64,000 nucleotides of DNA from a virus. The notes under the pieces were generated by a model. The model did not search any database, had not been told where the DNA came from, and saw only the letters and a program-made list of their open reading frames with translations. Made by a program: the position numbers and the translations under genes. The DNA is taken from positions 1-64,000 of the IMG/VR virus record IMGVR_UViG_3300045988_107529; one strand, given 5' to 3'. Shown piece by piece: positions 2,141-59,801 of this stretch. The stretch's first letter is position 1; every line of letters starts with the position of its first letter.

Positions 2141-4106
2141 GTCTGTAGATTTGTTTCCAAGAACAGAGATTTCCGGCAGAAACAGAGAAGGAAAGTCCAC
2201 ATTGCAGGATGCATATTTGGACGTTTTGACAGGAAAGATGGCAAATGGTACAGAACCGACTTCTATTCGCAGAAAAGAAAATGGCGTGGAAGTGCCAAAG
2301 GTTGATGTTGTAAGAGAACTTACACTTGCGATTGATGGGAAAGAAAAAATGATCCGCAAAATCACAAAGCAGAAGTGGAGAAAACCAAGAGGACAGTCAG
2401 AAGAGGTATTCGATGGAAATGAAACTTCTTATGAAATTGACGGATTCCCGGCTAAATCAAAAGATTATACCGAGTTCATCCAGTCAATAGCAGAACCTTC
2501 AACGCTTCTGATGTGCAGTAATTCAAAAACTTTTCTTGATATTTTACAGAAATCCACTTCGGAAGCCAGAAAAAAGCTTGGGGAGATGGCAGGATTTGAC
2601 GTAAATAAATTTATTTTAGACAATCCTCAATATGTTTCTTTAAGCGAAATAACAAAAGGAAATTCTATAGAAAACACTCTGAAAAAATTAAGAAAAGATT
2701 TAAGAGATCAGAAAAAGAAATGCGATGAAAAAGACACGGAAATCAAGTATGAAACCAATAGAAGTGTTGAAGCGGAAGACACTTCCTCCCTAGAATCCAA
2801 AAAACAGGAGCTTAATGCGGAGCTTTCTAAACTGGAAGAACAGGAACAGATTCTTGAAGATTCGGCAAAAGGCTATGACAGCCTTTCATATGAAATCCGA
2901 GGACTGAAATCTTCCAGGGATGGACTTGTTAGCAAGGCGAATGAATGGTTAAGAGCCAGACAAAAATTCATTTCTGATACATTTTCCGAACTTAAGTTAA
3001 AAAAATCAGAAAAGGAATCAAGCATTCGTATTATTGGAATGGAACTGGATAACCACATAAGAGCTGGACAACAGGCAAAAGCCGACTTGGATAGAGCCAG
3101 ACAGGACTATCCAAGAATAAAAGAAATGGAGTGGGATGATTCTGGACTGAAAGCTATTGAAGTCGAAACATTCAATGATTCTGATACTATTTGCCCGACC
3201 TGTGGACAGGAACTGCCAGATGAACAGATTGCCGAATTGAGAGCTTCCTTTGAAGAAAAGAAGAAGACTAGAATTGAATCACAGTTGAAAGTAAAAGAAT
3301 CCTTTGAATTGGAGAAGCAGGAAAAGCTTAAATATGTCTGCGACCTTGGAAATACTTCCGCTGCAAAATTAAAGAAAACTAACGAGGAAATCAACAAATT
3401 ACAGTCGGAAATTAGCGTAGCACAGGATGAAGTTGCTGAACTCACTAAGCAGATTGAGGAAGAGCAGTCCAAATTTATGGAGCTTCCAGAATCTGTAGAT
3501 ATGACAAATGATGAAGAATATCTTGCGGTTACAGCGAGAATTGCAGAACTTGAAGAGAAACTGAAATCATTTGATGATGTTCCTGGAAAGAAACAGGAAT
3601 TAAGAATGCAGATCAGCAATGTTATGAAACAGATTTCCAATGTGGATGCAGACATTAAGATTGCACAGGCAGCAGTCACAGAGAAAGAAAAGCGAGTAGC
3701 CGAACTGAATAAGGAACTGAAAAGCATTGGACAGGTACAAGCTGATATTGAAAAGAACATTGATACCGTTCTTAACTTCTCAATTCAGAAAAACAAGGCA
3801 CTGGCAGAGAAAATCAATCCATACTTTAAGCATTTCCAGTTCAGTTTCCTTGATTACACGATTGATGGAAATCCAGTGGAAACTTGCAAGATGATCTGTA
3901 ATGGAATCGACTACAACAGCGGATTGAATCATTCCGACAAAATTCTTTGCGAGGTTGATTTACTGAATGGATTACAGGAAATGAATGGGCTAAATCTGCC
4001 GATTTGGATTGATGATTCGGAGAGCATTGACAAAAGTAGAATCCCTATGTTAGACAGGCAGATGATTGTGCTAAGAGTGACAGATGGAGATTTGAAAGTA
4101 ATTTGA
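2085..4106 (+). CDS. SMC/Rad50/RecF-like AAA ATPase with coiled coil
   Basis: 673 aa. Walker A GRNREGKST. Long Glu/Lys-rich coiled-coil middle with the zinc-hook-like CPTCGQELP. C-terminal LPIWIDDSESID (Walker B/D-loop like). Confidence 0.7.
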   Translation: MKVEVKKISLENYKKFPSKSVDLFPRTEISGRNREGKSTLQDAYLDVLTGKMANGTEPTSIRRKENGVEVPKVDVVRELTLAIDGKEKMIRKITKQKWRKPRGQSEEVFDGNETSYEIDGFPAKSKDYTEFIQSIAEPSTLLMCSNSKTFLDILQKSTSEARKKLGEMAGFDVNKFILDNPQYVSLSEITKGNSIENTLKKLRKDLRDQKKKCDEKDTEIKYETNRSVEAEDTSSLESKKQELNAELSKLEEQEQILEDSAKGYDSLSYEIRGLKSSRDGLVSKANEWLRARQKFISDTFSELKLKKSEKESSIRIIGMELDNHIRAGQQAKADLDRARQDYPRIKEMEWDDSGLKAIEVETFNDSDTICPTCGQELPDEQIAELRASFEEKKKTRIESQLKVKESFELEKQEKLKYVCDLGNTSAAKLKKTNEEINKLQSEISVAQDEVAELTKQIEEEQSKFMELPESVDMTNDEEYLAVTARIAELEEKLKSFDDVPGKKQELRMQISNVMKQISNVDADIKIAQAAVTEKEKRVAELNKELKSIGQVQADIEKNIDTVLNFSIQKNKALAEKINPYFKHFQFSFLDYTIDGNPVETCKMICNGIDYNSGLNHSDKILCEVDLLNGLQEMNGLNLPIWIDDSESIDKSRIPMLDRQMIVLRVTDGDLKVI

Positions 4107-4122
4107 TAAACAGGAGGGGAAA

Positions 4123-4569
4123 ATGCTAACAGCAACATGGGGAAAACATTTTTTCAAAGCGGATGCTACAAAATGTGCTTCTGAAATCATGGAAATTTGC
4201 GATCAGATGGAATCTGCTACACCACAGCAGATTCTTGAGAAAGCAAGGGACGAAAGTACAGAATTACATAAGTGCTTCACATGGGATGATTCCATAGCAG
4301 CTGAAAAATACAGAATCCACGAAGCCAGACAGATTGTTTGTCAGTTAAAAATCGTGGAACAGGATATTGACAACAAGTCAAAGCCGACAGCAATTCGAGT
4401 GTTTTACAAGACAGATGGCAAAAGCGGATATAAGCCAACACAGCTTATTTTGAAGCAGCCAGATGAATACGAAGCACTTTTAGAGCGTTGTCGGAATGAA
4501 CTTCTGTCAGTGAAACAGAAATACCAGAATATTTCCGAATACGAAGAAGTTTGGGAACTGATTAATTAA
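4123..4569 (+). CDS. Hypothetical protein (148 aa)
   Basis: SD GGAGGGG upstream of ATG 4123; motif CFTWDDSIAAEKYRIHEARQIV; family not recognised. Confidence 0.6.
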   Translation: MLTATWGKHFFKADATKCASEIMEICDQMESATPQQILEKARDESTELHKCFTWDDSIAAEKYRIHEARQIVCQLKIVEQDIDNKSKPTAIRVFYKTDGKSGYKPTQLILKQPDEYEALLERCRNELLSVKQKYQNISEYEEVWELIN

Positions 4570-30405: not shown

Positions 30406-30478
30406 TGGGCTATCGCCAAACGGTTAAGGCACAGCACTTTGACTGCTATATTTGCTGGTTCGAATCCAGTTAGCCCAG
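30406..30478 (+). tRNA. tRNA-Gln (anticodon UUG)
   Basis: Cloverleaf by hand. Acceptor tgggcta/tagccca (U1-A72), D gcc/ggc, anticodon loop ctTTGac, T-arm gctgg-ttcgaat-ccagt. No encoded CCA. Confidence 0.75.
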
Positions 30479-30628
30479 TTTGCGGTTTTGCTAACGCCGC
30501 AAGTTCATTTTATAACACTCTTTTCTGAAATCTAAAAGCGTTTCAGAAAACCTTTGTTGCGGTTGGTGGTCAAGAACTGCAACAGTGCCGGATTGTTTGT
30601 CATGGCGGTCAAATAATTCGGTATCTTA

Positions 30629-30701
30629 GGAAGCTTAGTTCAGCGGTAAGAGCAACGGCCTCATAAGCCGTAAGTCCTGGGTTCGAATCCCAGAGCTTCC
30701 A
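30629..30701 (+). tRNA. tRNA with CAU anticodon (Met or Ile2)
   Basis: Acceptor ggaagct/agcttcc, anticodon arm acggc-ctCATaa-gccgt, T-arm ctggg-ttcgaat-cccag. Confidence 0.85.
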
Positions 30702-31222
30702 TTTCTTCTAAATGCCATTCATCCGTAATATGGGTGGAAAAAACTTCCAGTTGAGCGTGTGGATTAGGTAAATTTATAGGTGCGATACGGCGTAGCCTAA
30801 ATGGATCTGATTTCCCGGCTGGTATATCTCGGAGTTAAAAACATTAACGCAGCGCACGTTAATAAAAGGAGTTTTCAAGAGATGCCGTTCAAAGACGCAT
30901 AAAAATATCCAGTGAATCTACAGCACTAAAACTTGTAGATAGTGGAAAGCATAACACGATAAACCTATTGCTAACCCGGAAGAACCGGGTTATTCGGAAA
31001 GTGCAAGTAACTGGGAACGGGCTAGTCGACTAGGTCTTGATGGTTCGAATCCATCCTTTCCGATTGTTTGGAGACTGAAAGTTTGGTGGTAGGAAAAGCA
31101 CAGAGCAGTGCGTAGGAATGTATAACCGAGTTCCGAATACGTACTGTTTATCGGTGATATAGTGACTTCCTCTAGTAGTCAATAAGTGAACGTGCTGAAA
31201 TGGTTCTTCCAAACATGTACAT
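30702..31222 (+). ncRNA. Densely structured non-coding spacer inside the tRNA cluster (candidate large ornate RNA or processed spacers)
   Basis: Hairpins at 30715-30737, 30843-30863, 30916-30940, 30973-30991 and 31106-31146. Possible long-range pairing tgtttgga (31066) with tccaaaca (31207). No credible ORF. Confidence 0.4.
30995..31063 (+). ncRNA. tRNA-like element 1 (acceptor stem plus T-arm, no canonical D or anticodon arm)
   Basis: Acceptor cggaaag/ctttccg, T-arm gatgg-ttcgaat-ccatc. The centre is the hairpin ctag-tcga-ctag with a 4-nt loop. Only 69 nt. Confidence 0.45.
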
Positions 31223-31294
31223 AGCAGGATAGAGAAGCGGAATCTCGCATGGCTCATATCCATGAAAACGGCGGTTCGAATCCGTCTCCTGCTA
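31223..31294 (+). tRNA. tRNA with CAU anticodon (second copy; Met/Ile2)
   Basis: Acceptor agcagga/tcctgct, D gaga/tctc, anticodon arm catgg-ctCATat-ccatg, T-arm ggcgg-ttcgaat-ccgtc. Confidence 0.8.
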
Positions 31295-31353
31295 TTCCAT
31301 CTACCAAGTGTAGATAGGAAATATGACTTTAGCATAGCTATTGTTGGTTTTTA

Positions 31354-31467
31354 GACGAGGCAGCTCAATTGGACAGAGCAATGAGAATATTAGTCATGTT
31401 TGTGACTATAACAGCAATTTACTCCATTACAAGGCATAGGTTGGTGGTTCGAATCCATCCCTCGTCA
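31354..31467 (+). ncRNA. tRNA-like element 2 (114 nt; canonical acceptor, D and T arms, expanded centre)
   Basis: Acceptor gacgagg/cctcgtc, D-arm gctc-aattggaca-gagc, T-arm ggtgg-ttcgaat-ccatc. About 60 nt of extra sequence includes the hairpin agtca-TGTTTG-tgact. Confidence 0.45.
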
Positions 31468-31468
31468 C

Positions 31469-31559
31469 TGCCCCGGTTATCGGTTACGGAAAACCGATTA
31501 GAACATGTTTGTGTTCTTCACTGCAAATAATTTTATAGGTTCAAATCCTGTCGGGGCAA
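31469..31559 (+). ncRNA. tRNA-like element 3 (91 nt; acceptor plus T-arm, two non-canonical hairpins)
   Basis: Acceptor tgccccg/cggggca, T-arm atagg-ttcaaat-cctgt, hairpins atcggtt/aaccgat and agaaca-TGTTTG-tgttct. Shares CATGTTTGTG with element 2 (31395 and 31504). Confidence 0.45.
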
Positions 31560-31653
31560 TTATGTGATGCTTACAGCAATCATTTTGGACATAACTGCTA
31601 AATTATGAAACCCAAAAGCATCATGAAATTTATGGGACGCTTACAGCAACTCA
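31560..31653 (+). repeat. Two ~23-nt direct repeats TTATGKGAYGCTTACAGCAAYYCA upstream of the vWA gene
   Basis: 31560-31582 and 31630-31653, 70 nt apart; followed by an AT-rich -10-like region. Confidence 0.6.
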
Positions 31654-31712
31654 CTTAAATAAAATCTAATTCGTATATTTTATATTTTTTGTGTCCTGAA
31701 AGGAGAAGAAAC

Positions 31713-33164
31713 ATGGATTTTGCAAATGCAATGAAGGAAGAAAGCAAGTTTACAAGAACTGAAAACGGAGCAGTTGCGCTGAATACTACAAGTGATGCAA
31801 GACTTGACCTGTTCGGAACTATTGGTGCATTGAGAGAAGCTGATGAAAATAGAATCACCACTTTATTCTCAGAAGCATTTGCACAGGATAAACTTTTTGC
31901 CACAAAGATTGCTTTTTATGCAAGAGATATTCGTTGTGGGCTTGGAGAGAGAAAAACTTTCCGAACCATTATCCGCTACATGGCTGAACATCATCCAGAA
32001 GCACTCAGACCGAATCTTGATTTAATTGGAGTATTCGGGAGATACGATGATCTGTATGAACTGATTGAAACACCACTTGAAGATGACATGTGGAAATCTA
32101 TGAAGAAACAATTTGAGGAAGATTTGAAAAATCTCAATGATGGAAAAGCAATTTCTTTACTTGCTAAATGGATTAAGACTGCTGATGCAAGTAGCAGAGA
32201 AACTAGGAAGTTAGGAATCTTGACTGCACAGAAGTTGGGTTATCCAGTCTACAACTTTAAGAGAATTGTTCGTAGCATGAGAAAACAGATCGGTGTTGTT
32301 GAAAGCCTTATGTCTGCCGGTAAATGGAATGAGATTAAATATCCAGAAGTTCCGAGCCGTGCAATGATGATTTATCGCAAGGCCTTTGCAAAACATGATC
32401 CAGATGGATTTAATGATTTTATTAATAAGGCTGATAAAGGAGAAGTTAAAATCAACGCTTCAACTTTGTATCCTTATGACATCGTGGAAAAAATCCTTTA
32501 CGGAAGAGAAAACAACAAAGTTCTTGAAGCACAGTGGAAAGCACTTCCAGATTATGTTGAACAGGGAACAAACGCACTCATAATGGCGGACGTATCTGGC
32601 TCAATGTATGGAAGACCAATGGCAACATCAATTGGACTAGCTATATATTTTGCCGAGAGAAACACAGGCGCATATCATAATCTTTTTATGACTTTCTCGG
32701 CAAATCCACAGATTGTTACTTTGAAAGGAGAAACACTTTTTCAAAAGGTGAGAAATGTTAATAAGGCAGACTGGGGAATGAATACAAACCTCAAAGCAGC
32801 ATTCGAGAAAGTTCTTGATATTGCTGAAAAGAACAATATTTCACAAGAACAAATGCCAAAAGCTATCGTTGTAATTTCCGATATGGAAATTGATCGTTGC
32901 GGAAATAAGGACTGGTCTTTTTATGACAAAATGGAAAGTAAGTTTCGCAAAGCCGGATATGTTATTCCAAACATTATTTTCTGGAATGTCGAAAGCAGAC
33001 ATGATGTATTCCACGCGGACTCTACAAGGAAAGGCGTACAGCTTGCAAGTGGTCAGTCGGTGACAGTGTTCAAACAGGTGTTACAGAATCTTGGATACAA
33101 TCCAATTGAAGCTATGGAGAACACGATCAATTCGGAAAGATACAATTGTATTACTGTCGAATGA
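31713..33164 (+). CDS. DUF2828-like helical domain plus vWA/MIDAS domain protein (Ro60-like architecture)
   Basis: 483 aa from ATG 31713 (SD AAAGGAG). N-terminal FTRTENGAVALNTTSDARLDLF resembles the DUF2828 start as I recall it. C-terminal IMADVSGSM .. VVISDMEID is MIDAS-like. Confidence 0.55.
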   Translation: MDFANAMKEESKFTRTENGAVALNTTSDARLDLFGTIGALREADENRITTLFSEAFAQDKLFATKIAFYARDIRCGLGERKTFRTIIRYMAEHHPEALRPNLDLIGVFGRYDDLYELIETPLEDDMWKSMKKQFEEDLKNLNDGKAISLLAKWIKTADASSRETRKLGILTAQKLGYPVYNFKRIVRSMRKQIGVVESLMSAGKWNEIKYPEVPSRAMMIYRKAFAKHDPDGFNDFINKADKGEVKINASTLYPYDIVEKILYGRENNKVLEAQWKALPDYVEQGTNALIMADVSGSMYGRPMATSIGLAIYFAERNTGAYHNLFMTFSANPQIVTLKGETLFQKVRNVNKADWGMNTNLKAAFEKVLDIAEKNNISQEQMPKAIVVISDMEIDRCGNKDWSFYDKMESKFRKAGYVIPNIIFWNVESRHDVFHADSTRKGVQLASGQSVTVFKQVLQNLGYNPIEAMENTINSERYNCITVE

Positions 33165-33224: not shown

Positions 33225-33296
33225 TGAAACATAGCTCAGTGGTAGAGCAATGATACTCAATATCATGTGACACAGGTTCGATTCCTGTTGTTTCTA
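33225..33296 (+). tRNA. tRNA with UCA anticodon (opal-suppressor/Trp-UGA type), atypical C33 and U1.U72
   Basis: Acceptor tgaaaca/tgtttct, D gctc-agtggta-gagc, anticodon arm atgat-acTCAat-atcat, T-arm acagg-ttcgatt-cctgt. Confidence 0.55.
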
Positions 33297-33414
33297 TCTG
33301 GCAAATTGCCATTGCCAGAAGTTGCATTTTCCCCCTTAAAGTTCCAGTGTTTCTCGTTGGGAGATTCATGCCGTTCAAGTCGGCACACTGGATTTTTCTA
33401 AATCGAGGTAATTT

Positions 33415-35954: not shown

Positions 35955-36116
35955 ATGGTATGGTGCGAATTAAGAAACATTCCGTGCATACATCCAGAAC
36001 CAGATGGATTAGAAAATTGCAGATATTGTGAAAAATATAGTTTTGAAAAATATTTAGAATACAAAAAATCAAAAAGAAAAGTCAAGAGAGCCAAAAAGGA
36101 GCGCCATTATGAGTGA
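35955..36116 (+). CDS. Small Cys-rich basic protein (53 aa), tentative
   Basis: MVWCELRNIPCIHPEPDGLENCRYCEKY..; weak SD; overlaps the rtcB start. Confidence 0.3.
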   Translation: MVWCELRNIPCIHPEPDGLENCRYCEKYSFEKYLEYKKSKRKVKRAKKERHYE

Positions 36117-37311
36117 TTTGAAGATATTTACAGAAAAAATCGAGCAAGAAGCATTAAATCAAATTTATACACTAATAAAACAGCCTGCATTTTCTGAATG
36201 TAAAGTACGAATCATGCCAGATGTTCACGCAGGGGCAGGATGTGTAATTGGCTTTACAGCTGATCTTGGAGATAAAGTAATTCCGAACATTGTTGGAGTA
36301 GACATTGGATGCGGAATGCTCACAACACAAATTCCTACTGATGTGGGAACAATAGATTTTAAAATCCTTGACGAAGTGATAAGAAATAATGTTCCGGCAG
36401 GAAGAAATGTACGTGACGAAATCATAAATTTTAAAGAATTAGAAGAACTTCACTGCTTTTCACTGCTTAAAAATGTTGAATGGATTCGCAGGAGTCTTGG
36501 TACACTTGGGGGAGGAAATCATTTTATTGAAGTTGACACCGATTCAAAAGGCATAAACTACCTTGTAATTCACACTGGAAGTCGTAACCTTGGAAAACAG
36601 GTAGCTGAAATATATCAAAAAATTGCCATAGAAGATATGCAGGGTACAGATAAGCTCGAAACTGAAATACAGAAATTAGTAAAAGAATACAAGTGCTCTG
36701 GCAGGCATAAGGAAATTCAAAATAGTATTGATGAATTAAAACGAAAATGGAAGCCAGACAAACTTGGAATTCCGAAAGAACTATGTTATTTGACAGGTGA
36801 GCATAGAAGACAATATCTGCATGATATGAAAATCTGTCAAGAATTTGCAAGAATAAACAGAAGATGCATACAGTCAGCTATATTCTACACTATGAATTGG
36901 ACACTTCAAAGAAACACATGGTTTGACACAATTCATAATTATATTGACCACGATACAAATATTGTTCGGAAAGGTGCGATATCAGCTAAACATGGTGAAA
37001 AAGTTCTTATCCCTATGAATATGCGAGATGGATGTATTATTGCAATTGGAAAAGGAAATGAGGATTGGAACTGTTCAGCCCCGCATGGCGCAGGGCGTAT
37101 TATGAGCCGATCAAAAGCAAAAGAAAACATTTCGTTAGAAGAATTTAAGGAGTCTATGAATGGGATATATACAACATCCGTTCAGAAATCTACAATTGAC
37201 GAAAGCCCTATGGCTTACAAACCGCCGCAAGAAATTATTGATAAAATCAAAGATACCGTAGATATAGTTGATATTATTAAACCTGTATATAATTTCAAAG
37301 CAAGTGAATAA
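36109..37311 (+). CDS. rtcB: RtcB RNA 3'-phosphate ligase
   Basis: 400 aa with the RtcB signatures PDVHAGAG, DIGCGM, GGGNHFIEVD, HTGSRNLG and APHGAGR. Confidence 0.9.
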   Translation: MSDLKIFTEKIEQEALNQIYTLIKQPAFSECKVRIMPDVHAGAGCVIGFTADLGDKVIPNIVGVDIGCGMLTTQIPTDVGTIDFKILDEVIRNNVPAGRNVRDEIINFKELEELHCFSLLKNVEWIRRSLGTLGGGNHFIEVDTDSKGINYLVIHTGSRNLGKQVAEIYQKIAIEDMQGTDKLETEIQKLVKEYKCSGRHKEIQNSIDELKRKWKPDKLGIPKELCYLTGEHRRQYLHDMKICQEFARINRRCIQSAIFYTMNWTLQRNTWFDTIHNYIDHDTNIVRKGAISAKHGEKVLIPMNMRDGCIIAIGKGNEDWNCSAPHGAGRIMSRSKAKENISLEEFKESMNGIYTTSVQKSTIDESPMAYKPPQEIIDKIKDTVDIVDIIKPVYNFKASE

Positions 37312-59540: not shown

Positions 59541-59801
59541 TTTTTGACTGATTGTGTGGTATGATTTCTTTAATGAAGAAGTACACACGGTTTTGATTTT
59601 TGAGCCGCTAAGAAGAAATTAATATTTCTCGATTTTGAGGAATTTTTATCTTACTTGGCGGCTCTTTTTTATTTTAACCGTTAATTTTGGTAAAACCAAC
59701 AGGCTAGACCGATCATCGAAAAGCGGAAATGCCTTGCCGCCTGCCTGTTGATTTACATACAGTTCAAGGCACTCTTTTATACGAAAGGCAGGTATCAATC
59801 T

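Follow-up and report, generated by a model that had tools for sequence, protein, structure and literature searches.

A widespread family of small RNAs with an ACAGCAA module beside a Ro60-like DUF2828 gene, found in the tRNA cluster of a gut phage

What might be the role of tRNA-like RNAs that lack a normal anticodon arm in a cluster of transfer RNA (tRNA) genes? The question is raised by the window considered here, a stretch of 64,000 nucleotides (nt) corresponding to positions 1 to 64,000 of IMG/VR virus record IMGVR_UViG_3300045988_107529, in which the tRNA cluster of a gut phage (30,406 to 31,559) combines three canonical tRNAs, one for Gln (UUG) and two with the anticodon CAU, with three non-canonical elements designated E1, E2 and E3. 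A first-pass annotation, made from the sequence alone, had described all six and had proposed that the non-canonical ones act as decoys, Y-RNA-like scaffolds or processing signals; ARAGORN and Rfam agreed with it on the canonical tRNAs, and direct reading of the sequence placed the other three elements exactly where it had put them. The results given below indicate that E2 and E3, together with two further RNAs (H4 and H5) that lie between E3 and the next gene and were missed by that annotation, are members of a small-RNA family, widespread and so far undescribed, that is found beside a gene for a Ro60-like protein, and are probably the non-coding partners of that protein.

On direct reading, E1, E2 and E3 (Table 1) were each seen to have a 7-base-pair (bp) acceptor stem and a T arm of sequence GGTTCRAATCC, a likeness to the Rfam tRNA family (RF00005) that extends to the T loop GTTCRANYC and, in E2, to a normal D arm (GCTC…GAGC). 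A discriminator base is present and no CCA is encoded, as in the neighbouring true tRNAs. The difference from tRNA lies in the 5-bp anticodon stem and 7-nt loop, which are found neither in E1, where the loop is of 4 nt, nor in E2 and E3, where a common module stands instead. None of the three was called a tRNA by ARAGORN at default settings, and in the Rfam scan of the window, listed to E≤10, E1 scored 27.1 bits against the tRNA model (gathering threshold, 29 bits) and E2 and E3 matched no family, tRNA, YrlA and Y_RNA included. Identity with tmRNA was also rejected, none being found in the window by ARAGORN. The minimum-free-energy fold of E3 was identical to the proposed structure (z = -3.8) and that of E2 gave z = -2.8; the first-pass anatomy, a canonical D arm in E2 and two hairpins in E3, was right.

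E2 and E3, which are one base apart, share with H4 and H5 a single module, in which a 7-bp helix leads into single-stranded (U)UACAGCAA; the motif is ACUGCAA in E3. The outer end of the helix in this phage group is GUG…CAU, with the outer pairs G·U, U-A and G-C in E2, E3 and H4, and H5 starts with GGG. Two arrangements of the helix were evident: in H4 and H5 it is formed by the paired ends of the RNA, and in E2 and E3 it is capped by a loop and placed at the position of the tRNA anticodon arm (CATGTTTGTG starts at 31395 in E2 and at 31504 in E3). From the shared hairpin and a CAGCAA linker, E2 and E3 had already been regarded as paralogues and not products of decay, a view borne out by their conservation and compensatory changes (see below); the linker, present in both as described, had nevertheless been underrated, as it is the core conserved motif. 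Elsewhere in the window ACAGCAA occurs at 4129, 4387 and 16383, in coding or unrelated sequence. All four module RNAs are on the same strand as the Ro60-like gene and 15–360 nt upstream of it. No terminator-like site was detected by a terminator scan between the RNA array and this gene, and the end of H5 is 1 nt before the Shine-Dalgarno sequence of the open reading frame (ORF).

The relation of the encoded protein to Ro60 was seen by fold comparison only. Thus, a Pfam scan of the protein returned DUF2828, DUF7788 and VWA with no TROVE match, and a phmmer search of the PDB returned no Ro60. A model built with AlphaFold2 (AF2) on an alignment of 46 diverse homologues had a predicted local distance difference test (pLDDT) score of 92.4 and a predicted TM-score (pTM) of 0.90; a single-sequence run, which gave a pLDDT of 41, was not used. 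When the model was compared with the PDB by Foldseek, the nine best matches (1yvr, 9kop, 2i91, 1yvp, 9nfa, 9nep and 9nf8 among them) were all Ro60/TROVE structures (E 3e-7 to 1e-5, TM 0.5–0.6, approximately 550 columns), and the remaining matches were to vWA domains only, with E≥1e-2. As in Ro60/TROVE proteins, the model consists of a HEAT-repeat ring and a C-terminal vWA domain with a metal-ion-dependent adhesion site (MIDAS), the motif of which (DxSxS…T…D) is intact, residues D293, S295, S297, T358 and D390 being invariant in the alignment. Judged from this predicted structure, the product is a full-length structural homologue of Ro60. The protein family, labelled 'RNA-binding protein' in PHROG 850 and annotated 'Ro-like RNA binding protein' in mycobacteriophages, comprises 6,714 cluster representatives at 50% identity and has members in 711 phage genomes of GenBank, among them those of Felix O1-like phages, Listeria A511/P100-like phages and cluster L mycobacteriophages. 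Given the Ro60-like fold and the presence of a gene for the RNA ligase RtcB 3 kb downstream, the locus is taken to be a phage counterpart of bacterial rsr-yrlA-rtcB.

Conservation in close relatives was assessed in 82 loci, namely 80 IMG/VR contigs with a protein 82–95% identical to that of the window and two GenBank phage fragments. H4 and H5 were each present in 80 of these loci, E2 in 75 and E3 in 54. The E2 acceptor stem changes between subtypes from GACGAGG/CCUCGUC to GGCAAGG/CCUUGCC, and the T stems change likewise in a compensatory manner. In E3, acceptor pair 7 changes from G-C to A-U, hairpin 1 changes too, and stem pairs are kept through G-C/G-U and A-U/G-C changes; the acceptor change was read directly, since in the MAFFT alignment of E3 the acceptor stem is displaced by one column, which makes acceptor counts from it meaningless. 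The 9-bp stem of H4 was 100% paired and its inner hairpin showed two double compensatory changes (CAUAA/UUAUG to UAUGA/UCAUA between subtypes); the stem of H5 was also 100% paired, with a change from G-U to A-U. Comparison of the window with MT838485 showed stronger conservation from E2 to H5 than in the adjoining protein gene. In some relatives a class II tRNA-Tyr(GUA) stands in place of E2. The idea that E2 derives from tRNA-Tyr, suggested by a GAUUGUAAG stretch, was rejected, as the two have unlike D arms and the subtype of the window lacks the stretch.

The association of the RNAs with the gene over long evolutionary distances was evident from searches made in both directions. In the first, protein alignment against one genome per species yielded 80 loci at 37–81% identity, from Lachnospiraceae, Erysipelotrichaceae, Treponema, Fusibacter, Asgard bins and others. 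Over the 500 nt that precede the gene (78 loci), ACAGCAA was found 106 times on the coding strand where approximately 5.5 occurrences were expected (19-fold; Poisson ~1e-94) and not once on the opposite strand, 62 of the 78 loci having at least one copy. It occurred there in stand-alone stems (…GAYGC-NN-ACAGCAA…GCRUC-YUG) or in tandem arrays of tRNA-grafted RNAs. A classifier of helix type, too permissive in that it scored 161 of 237 random control positions as 'H', served for listing examples only. In the second search, only the RNA pattern of stem, ACAGCAA and stem was used (GACGCNNACAGCAAN{20,50}GCGTCYTG). At least 120 viral stretches matched, and a DUF2828 gene was found in 45 of the 80 that were examined, always on the same strand and in 29 cases no more than 800 nt downstream. 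Application of a covariance model of E2-type RNAs (R2), under which E2 itself scored 96.1 bits and E3 33.7 bits, to the loci found by pattern brought out approximately 90 further full-size copies (≥45 bits), in arrays of 2–5 tRNA-like copies. Among 36 diverse E2-type RNAs the module helix was 98% paired with compensatory changes at 5 of 6 pairs, and the covariation score for the whole structure was 0.58, compared with 0.18 for shuffled sequences and at most 0.13 for slid controls. Of the 80 diverse loci, 16 had an RtcB gene no more than 3 kb from DUF2828 and on its strand (a 17th, partial match was on the opposite strand), often directly adjacent, for example in Erysipelotrichaceae and others, and the layout therefore mirrors that of rsr-yrlA-rtcB.

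The association was also seen in a cultured phage of Escherichia, the Felix-O1-like wV8 (EU877232), where stem-and-ACAGCAA RNAs, unannotated in the record, lie at 4217-4282 and 4383-4440, between the annotated tRNAs Glu and Met and between Met and Asn in a tRNA cluster of Felix-O1 type, just downstream of the DUF2828 gene. Two observations concern the range of the family. In three loci from Erysipelotrichaceae bins (L122, L128 and L134) a third topology was noted approximately 200–320 nt upstream of DUF2828: where the acceptor stem would be there is the module helix, and inside it D-like, anticodon-like and T arms follow one another as in a tRNA; RtcB is encoded directly downstream of the protein gene in these loci. 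Two contigs binned as Promethearchaeota/Asgard (L150 and L151) carry DUF2828 homologues of 40% identity with stem-and-ACAGCAA RNAs upstream.

Table 1. Positions of the RNAs, genes and other features discussed, as numbered in the window
Feature	Position	Strand	Description
E2	31354..31467	+	114 nt; acceptor stem, D arm and T arm; a long irregular arm with the module replaces the anticodon arm
E2 module	31391..31417	+	Helix UAGUCAU/GUGACUA, loop GUUU, UA, ACAGCAA (31411-31417)
E3	31469..31559	+	91 nt; acceptor stem and T arm; 7-bp hairpin in place of the D arm, followed by the module
E3 module	31500..31526	+	Helix AGAACAU/GUGUUCU, loop GUUU, UC, ACUGCAA (31520-31526)
H4	31564..31625	+	Stand-alone module RNA; GUGAUGCUU-ACAGCAA…AAGCAUCAU-G, inner hairpin
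H5	31634..31698	+	Stand-alone module RNA or 5' leader; GGGACGC-UU-ACAGCAA…GUGUCC-UG
Ro60-like protein	31713..33164	+	DUF2828 helical ring and DUF7788/vWA; Pfam 3.9e-41 and 5e-43
RtcB RNA ligase	36109..37311	+	Pfam RtcB 1.2e-62; PHROG 1075 'tRNA splicing ligase'
E1	30995..31063	+	69 nt; 7-bp acceptor stem and T arm, without D stem; central hairpin with 4-nt loop
tRNA-Gln(UUG), canonical	30406..30478	+	ARAGORN; Rfam tRNA 58.2 bits
tRNA(CAU), canonical	30629..30701	+	ARAGORN; Rfam tRNA 71.5 bits
tRNA(CAU), canonical	31222..31295	+	ARAGORN; Rfam tRNA 60.7 bits
tRNA(UCA), fourth tRNA	33225..33296	+	ARAGORN and Rfam; missed by the first-pass annotation
Terminator-like hairpin	33297-33319		Directly after tRNA(UCA); terminator scan
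Integrase	19578		
Resolvase	27472		
Terminase	37379		
Portal	39573		
Major capsid protein	42336		

The known system closest to this arrangement is that of the YrlA and YrlB RNAs of bacteria and phages (RF02553), which occur with Rsr (the bacterial Ro60) and RtcB (Chen et al. 2014, PMC4201824; Hughes et al. 2020, PMC7790460). YrlA has a basal helix, a 5' motif GNCGAAN0-1G and a tRNA-like domain made up of a T arm, an acceptor-like hairpin and a D arm; it is encoded beside Ro60, and in M. smegmatis RNase P cleaves it and CCA is added to it (Chen et al. 2014, PMC4201824). In common with YrlA, the RNAs of the window are small and lie on the same strand as a gene for a protein of Ro60 fold and a few hundred bases from it (well within approximately 4 kb), often with RtcB; a short conserved motif is placed on or beside the 5' strand of their basal helix, and they have a tRNA-like domain with T and D arms and a 7-bp acceptor-like stem; and each locus has several paralogous copies, some being short forms that lack the full tRNA domain, comparable with YrlB. 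They differ in that the neighbouring protein is a DUF2828-type paralogue without a Pfam TROVE match and in that E2 and E3 end at the acceptor stem, the helix of the protein-binding type being internal.

A direct comparison was afforded by Mycobacterium phage Faith1 (JF744988), in which three module RNAs (3964-4222) lie just downstream of the gene annotated 'Ro-like RNA binding protein'. In the middle RNA (4024-4148) the T arm, 7-bp hairpin and D arm of YrlA are combined with UACAGCAA as the 5' motif; this RNA scored 21.7 bits against the Rfam YrlA model (threshold, 69) with a weak match to Dicty_Class_I_RNA as well. The linear order of E2 is acceptor, D arm, module, T arm, acceptor, which differs from that of YrlA unless the RNA is circularly permuted. 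Read as a cycle, E2 has a module strand with the motif, a variable region, a T arm, a 7-bp acceptor stem, a D arm, an A-rich linker and the other module strand, and when all 114 permutations of E2 were compared with the Faith1 RNA the best were those cut at 42–51, in the module loop (82, compared with 54 unpermuted). Since the parts and their cyclic order are the same in both RNAs, E2 can be described as a YrlA layout circularly permuted so as to have true tRNA termini, and such termini would suit processing by RNase P and CCA addition.

In the tRNA cluster of phage T4, RNAs C and D (species 1 and 2) are stable non-tRNAs freed by tRNA-processing enzymes. They resemble the RNAs of the window, by description only, as small non-tRNA RNAs in a phage tRNA cluster; T4 is not known to encode a DUF2828 protein.

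From these comparisons the system is considered to work like Rsr-YrlA-RtcB, its RNAs departing from YrlA proper in motif, topology and model score. We regard it as probable that E2, E3, H4 and H5 are non-coding partners of the Ro60-like DUF2828-vWA protein and functional analogues of YrlA/YrlB that act with RtcB in RNA repair or surveillance. The Y-RNA-like scaffold proposed in the first-pass annotation is thereby supported, on the strength of the Ro60 homologue downstream, the proximity of RtcB and the two-way linkage over distant loci. According to the scheme that we favour, the tRNA cluster, the array and the Ro60-like gene would be transcribed together; the tRNA bodies would make it possible for RNase P, 3'-end processing and the CCA-adding enzyme to cut the array into stable units; the Ro60-like ring would bind the module; and during infection the resulting particle, with RtcB, would help to survey damaged RNA, probably tRNA, or to repair it. 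The position of H5 at the Shine-Dalgarno sequence may in addition allow the protein to repress its own translation. From the spacing of 1–4 nt between units, the elements may also serve as processing signals, a role that had been proposed for them and would be secondary, not the main one.

Several points weigh against this interpretation. Every step of the mechanism is inferred from genomic linkage and analogy. The motif of the window is ACAGCAA, not the GNCGAAN0-1G of the YrlA that Ro60 binds, and none of E2, E3, H4 and H5 matched the Rfam YrlA or Y_RNA models at E≤10. Approximately 35 of the 80 pattern matches had no DUF2828 gene in the stretch examined; most of these belonged to the tRNA clusters of large phages, which may carry the gene in another place, and a few were chance matches in coding sequence. 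RtcB was within the flank examined in only about 20% of the loci. As for the structural evidence, 100% pairing of the acceptor and T stems was the criterion by which the set of 36 E2-type RNAs was selected and is therefore not independent evidence, and the lower stem of the central arm of E2 ('stem II', a candidate that pairs within single subtypes and is not claimed here) was only 53% paired in fixed register.

Of the other explanations, the one that survives best, although still unlikely, is that the array acts in cis only, as an operator or leader through which the Ro60-like protein or another factor controls how its own mRNA is translated or how stable it is, the tRNA-like punctuation setting the mRNA 5' end. 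It would account for the position of a module RNA in the window and in many Lachnospiraceae-type loci, where its end lies against the Shine-Dalgarno sequence and 13–29 nt from the start codon, as well as for the lack of a terminator-like site between array and gene, but not for the module RNAs of wV8 and Faith1, which are downstream of the gene, or for those in the tRNA clusters of many large phages with no DUF2828 gene nearby; and arrays of 2–5 tRNA-like copies exceed what a leader needs.

It is also rather improbable that the E2-type elements are real tRNA genes from which the module is excised as an intron, the exons being joined by RtcB and the excised RNA perhaps being the product. RtcB is a tRNA-splicing ligase linked to the locus, the E2-like elements of two loci (L137 and L138) scored 50–51 bits against Rfam tRNA with an insert of approximately 40 nt, and the same insert is borne by several tRNA bodies, both Leu-like and class I. 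In its intron-tolerant mode ARAGORN accepted 34 of 37 E2-type records (set A4) as a tRNA with an intron. The 34 homologues, however, received 34 different solutions of anticodon, intron position and intron length, with the intron at canonical position 38 in only three, and the E2 of the window was called only at a relaxed threshold, as a 'tRNA-Stop(UUA)' whose stem is mismatched and whose intron is placed at 32/33. These differing solutions argue against ordinary intron-containing tRNAs, although, in view of the linkage to RtcB, not conclusively. The first-pass annotation had named folding by programs as ordinary or intron-containing tRNAs as contrary to its reading, and the ARAGORN calls did not refute that reading. 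Moreover, the two E2 subtypes have no conserved anticodon loop in common, no bulge-helix-bulge was noticed on reading the sequences, no splicing endonuclease was found among the neighbouring ORFs scanned, and the module occurs in E3, H4 and H5 without a decodable tRNA.

Preservation of the acceptor, T and (in E2) D arms with loss of the anticodon, in a phage tRNA cluster beside an RNA-repair ligase, is what might be expected of a decoy or sponge for host tRNA-targeting nucleases or for a tRNA-sensing defence, independent of the Ro60-like protein. We consider this very unlikely: the anticodon loop, by which anticodon nucleases recognise their targets, is precisely what these elements lack, and neither the conserved ACAGCAA module, nor H4 and H5 with no tRNA body, nor the two-way linkage to DUF2828 across phyla would be explained. 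The decoy role put forward in the first-pass annotation received no direct support; its anatomy, the paralogy of E2 and E3 and the Y-RNA-like role were retained, and its grouping of E1 with E2 and E3 was not (see below). Decay to functionless tRNA pseudogenes, to which the silence of default tRNA finders, the replacement of E2 by tRNA-Tyr in some relatives and the absence of E3 from about a third of them might point, is hardly credible for E2, E3, H4 and H5, being already contradicted by covariation and conservation across phages of Lachnospiraceae, Erysipelotrichaceae, Treponema, Listeria, Escherichia and Mycobacterium and by the greater conservation of the E2-to-H5 region than of the protein gene relative to MT838485.

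The module RNAs also resemble a class of eukaryotic RNAs. Of all Rfam families, Dicty_Class_I_RNA alone gave a match to H5 (22.8 bits; threshold, 41.5). Class I RNAs (RF01414) have a 6-bp stem that joins the ends and starts with G, an 11-nt motif CCUUACAGCAA adjoining the 5' strand, in which U3, C6, C9, A10 and A11 are near-invariant, a variable loop and a 3' -UG, and are considered unique to Dictyostelia by their describers (Kjellin 2021, PMC7919456). H4 and H5 are of the same size (approximately 50–65 nt), with the motif (C)CUUACAGCAA directly after the 5' strand, a variable loop and a 3' end of stem and UG. The end-joining stem was found in H4 (GUGAUGC…GCAUCAU-G) and H5 (GGGACGC…GUGUCC-UG), that of E2 and E3 being loop-closed and permuted, and the counterpart of the 11-nt motif reads GCUUACAGCAA in H4 and H5, UAUAACAGCAA in E2 and UUCACUGCAAA in E3. 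The ACUGCAA variant of E3 recurs in dictyostelid Class I RNA (D. fasciculatum), and hairpins resembling a T arm occur in occasional members of both groups. Three Class I RNAs (asu_can_20, ppa_can_99 and DpuR-22; Kjellin 2021, supplementary file 48) carry GGUUCGAnnCC hairpins in the variable loop, parallel to the RNAs of L122, L128 and L134 that enclose tRNA-like parts.

The resemblance was pursued with a covariance model (R1) built from 37 dictyostelid RNAs only, with which 571,580 bases of bacterial and phage loci were searched on both strands. All of the top 20 matches, and 22 of the 31 in total, were on the coding strand within approximately 650 nt upstream of the start of DUF2828, a region that makes up about 5% of the search space; H5 scored 22.3 bits and H4 19.0 bits. 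No Class I matches were found when 67 kb of distant loci were scanned with Rfam at E≤10, owing to the larger search space. Matches beside the gene were obtained with R1 in three cultured phages, wV8, Faith1 and Listeria phage vB_LmoM_AG20 (NC_020871). In AG20, where the best match had 27.0 bits (E 4e-5), a sigma-70-like promoter is followed by three stand-alone RNAs (2120-2420) that read GGAAUC-UA-ACAGCAA…GAUUCC-UG, in a gap of 395 nt upstream of the DUF2828 gene. This gene is labelled 'RNA-binding protein' in AG20, and RtcB is encoded 1.2 kb downstream.

Differences from Class I RNAs were also noted. Besides the scores of the window being below the Rfam threshold, its context is phage or bacterial, whereas Class I genes occur in Dictyostelia, dispersed in the genome and each with its own DUSE promoter approximately 60 nt upstream (Aspegren 2004; Avesson 2011; Kjellin 2021). 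The known direct binder of Class I RNA is Rnp1A/CIBP, a protein with RRM domains; no link with a Ro60-like protein has been reported for the dictyostelid RNAs, and a literature search found no paper connecting Class I RNAs with Ro60. A pull-down with DdR-21 yielded Rnp1A/CIBP, GuaB, NdkC and DDB_G0281243, a protein of unknown function. It is conceivable, and suggested here tentatively, that Class I RNAs are eukaryotic members of the H4/H5 class and the 'Y RNAs' of a DUF2828-type Ro60 paralogue, which would be DDB_G0281243; phages, bacteria and some eukaryotes would then share an ancient Ro-like ribonucleoprotein, of which the tRNA-grafted forms such as E2 and E3 would be found in phages. Class I RNAs are abundant and developmentally regulated, and a true link to Dictyostelium would supply a testable mechanism for a class of eukaryotic non-coding RNA that has been an orphan for 20 years.

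Ro60 and its Y RNAs are a classic and still poorly understood RNA-surveillance system, to which the present findings would add a second, much larger Ro-like system. They name likely RNA partners for the DUF2828 family, a recognition module and its architectures (stand-alone, tRNA-grafted and YrlA-like permuted), and they give a concrete reason for what might pass as 'tRNA-like junk' in phage tRNA clusters. Tractable model phages are available, AG20 being a good experimental system in the A511/P100 group.

E1 was set apart from E2 and E3, with which the first-pass annotation had grouped it, because it lacks the ACAGCAA module and so falls outside that family, because it was found at full length in only 7 of the 82 related loci, and because its slot is occupied by tRNA-Tyr in other relatives. 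In a variant of E1 from three relatives (L022, L051 and L082) the stem is of 5 bp and the loop of 7 nt (UCAUAGA), and a T-stem pair has changed in a compensatory manner from G-C to A-U. E1 is probably a functional tRNA-derived RNA distinct from E2 and E3, a decayed tRNA pseudogene being a possible alternative. A conserved element of approximately 50 nt at 30944-30994 (GGAAAGCATAACACGATAAACNTATTGCTAACCCGG…CCGGGTTATT, with a GC hairpin) precedes E1 and, in relatives L024, L031 and L032, precedes tRNA-Tyr(GUA); it could be a processing or termination signal.

The remaining features of the window (Table 1) are those of a siphovirus-type phage or prophage of approximately 38% G+C. The anticodon of the fourth tRNA, which directly follows the Ro60-like gene, is of the opal-suppressor type; positions 1 and 72 of this tRNA are mismatched (U1·U72), and position 33 is C instead of U. 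TGA is the stop codon of 7 of the 13 long ORFs of this phage. In related phages the slot of this tRNA is filled by tRNA(ACA), tRNA(UGU) or tRNA-Ser(GCU). An int-alpA RNA was recognised by Rfam at 59697-59769 with a score of 45.4 bits (gathering threshold, 35.8).

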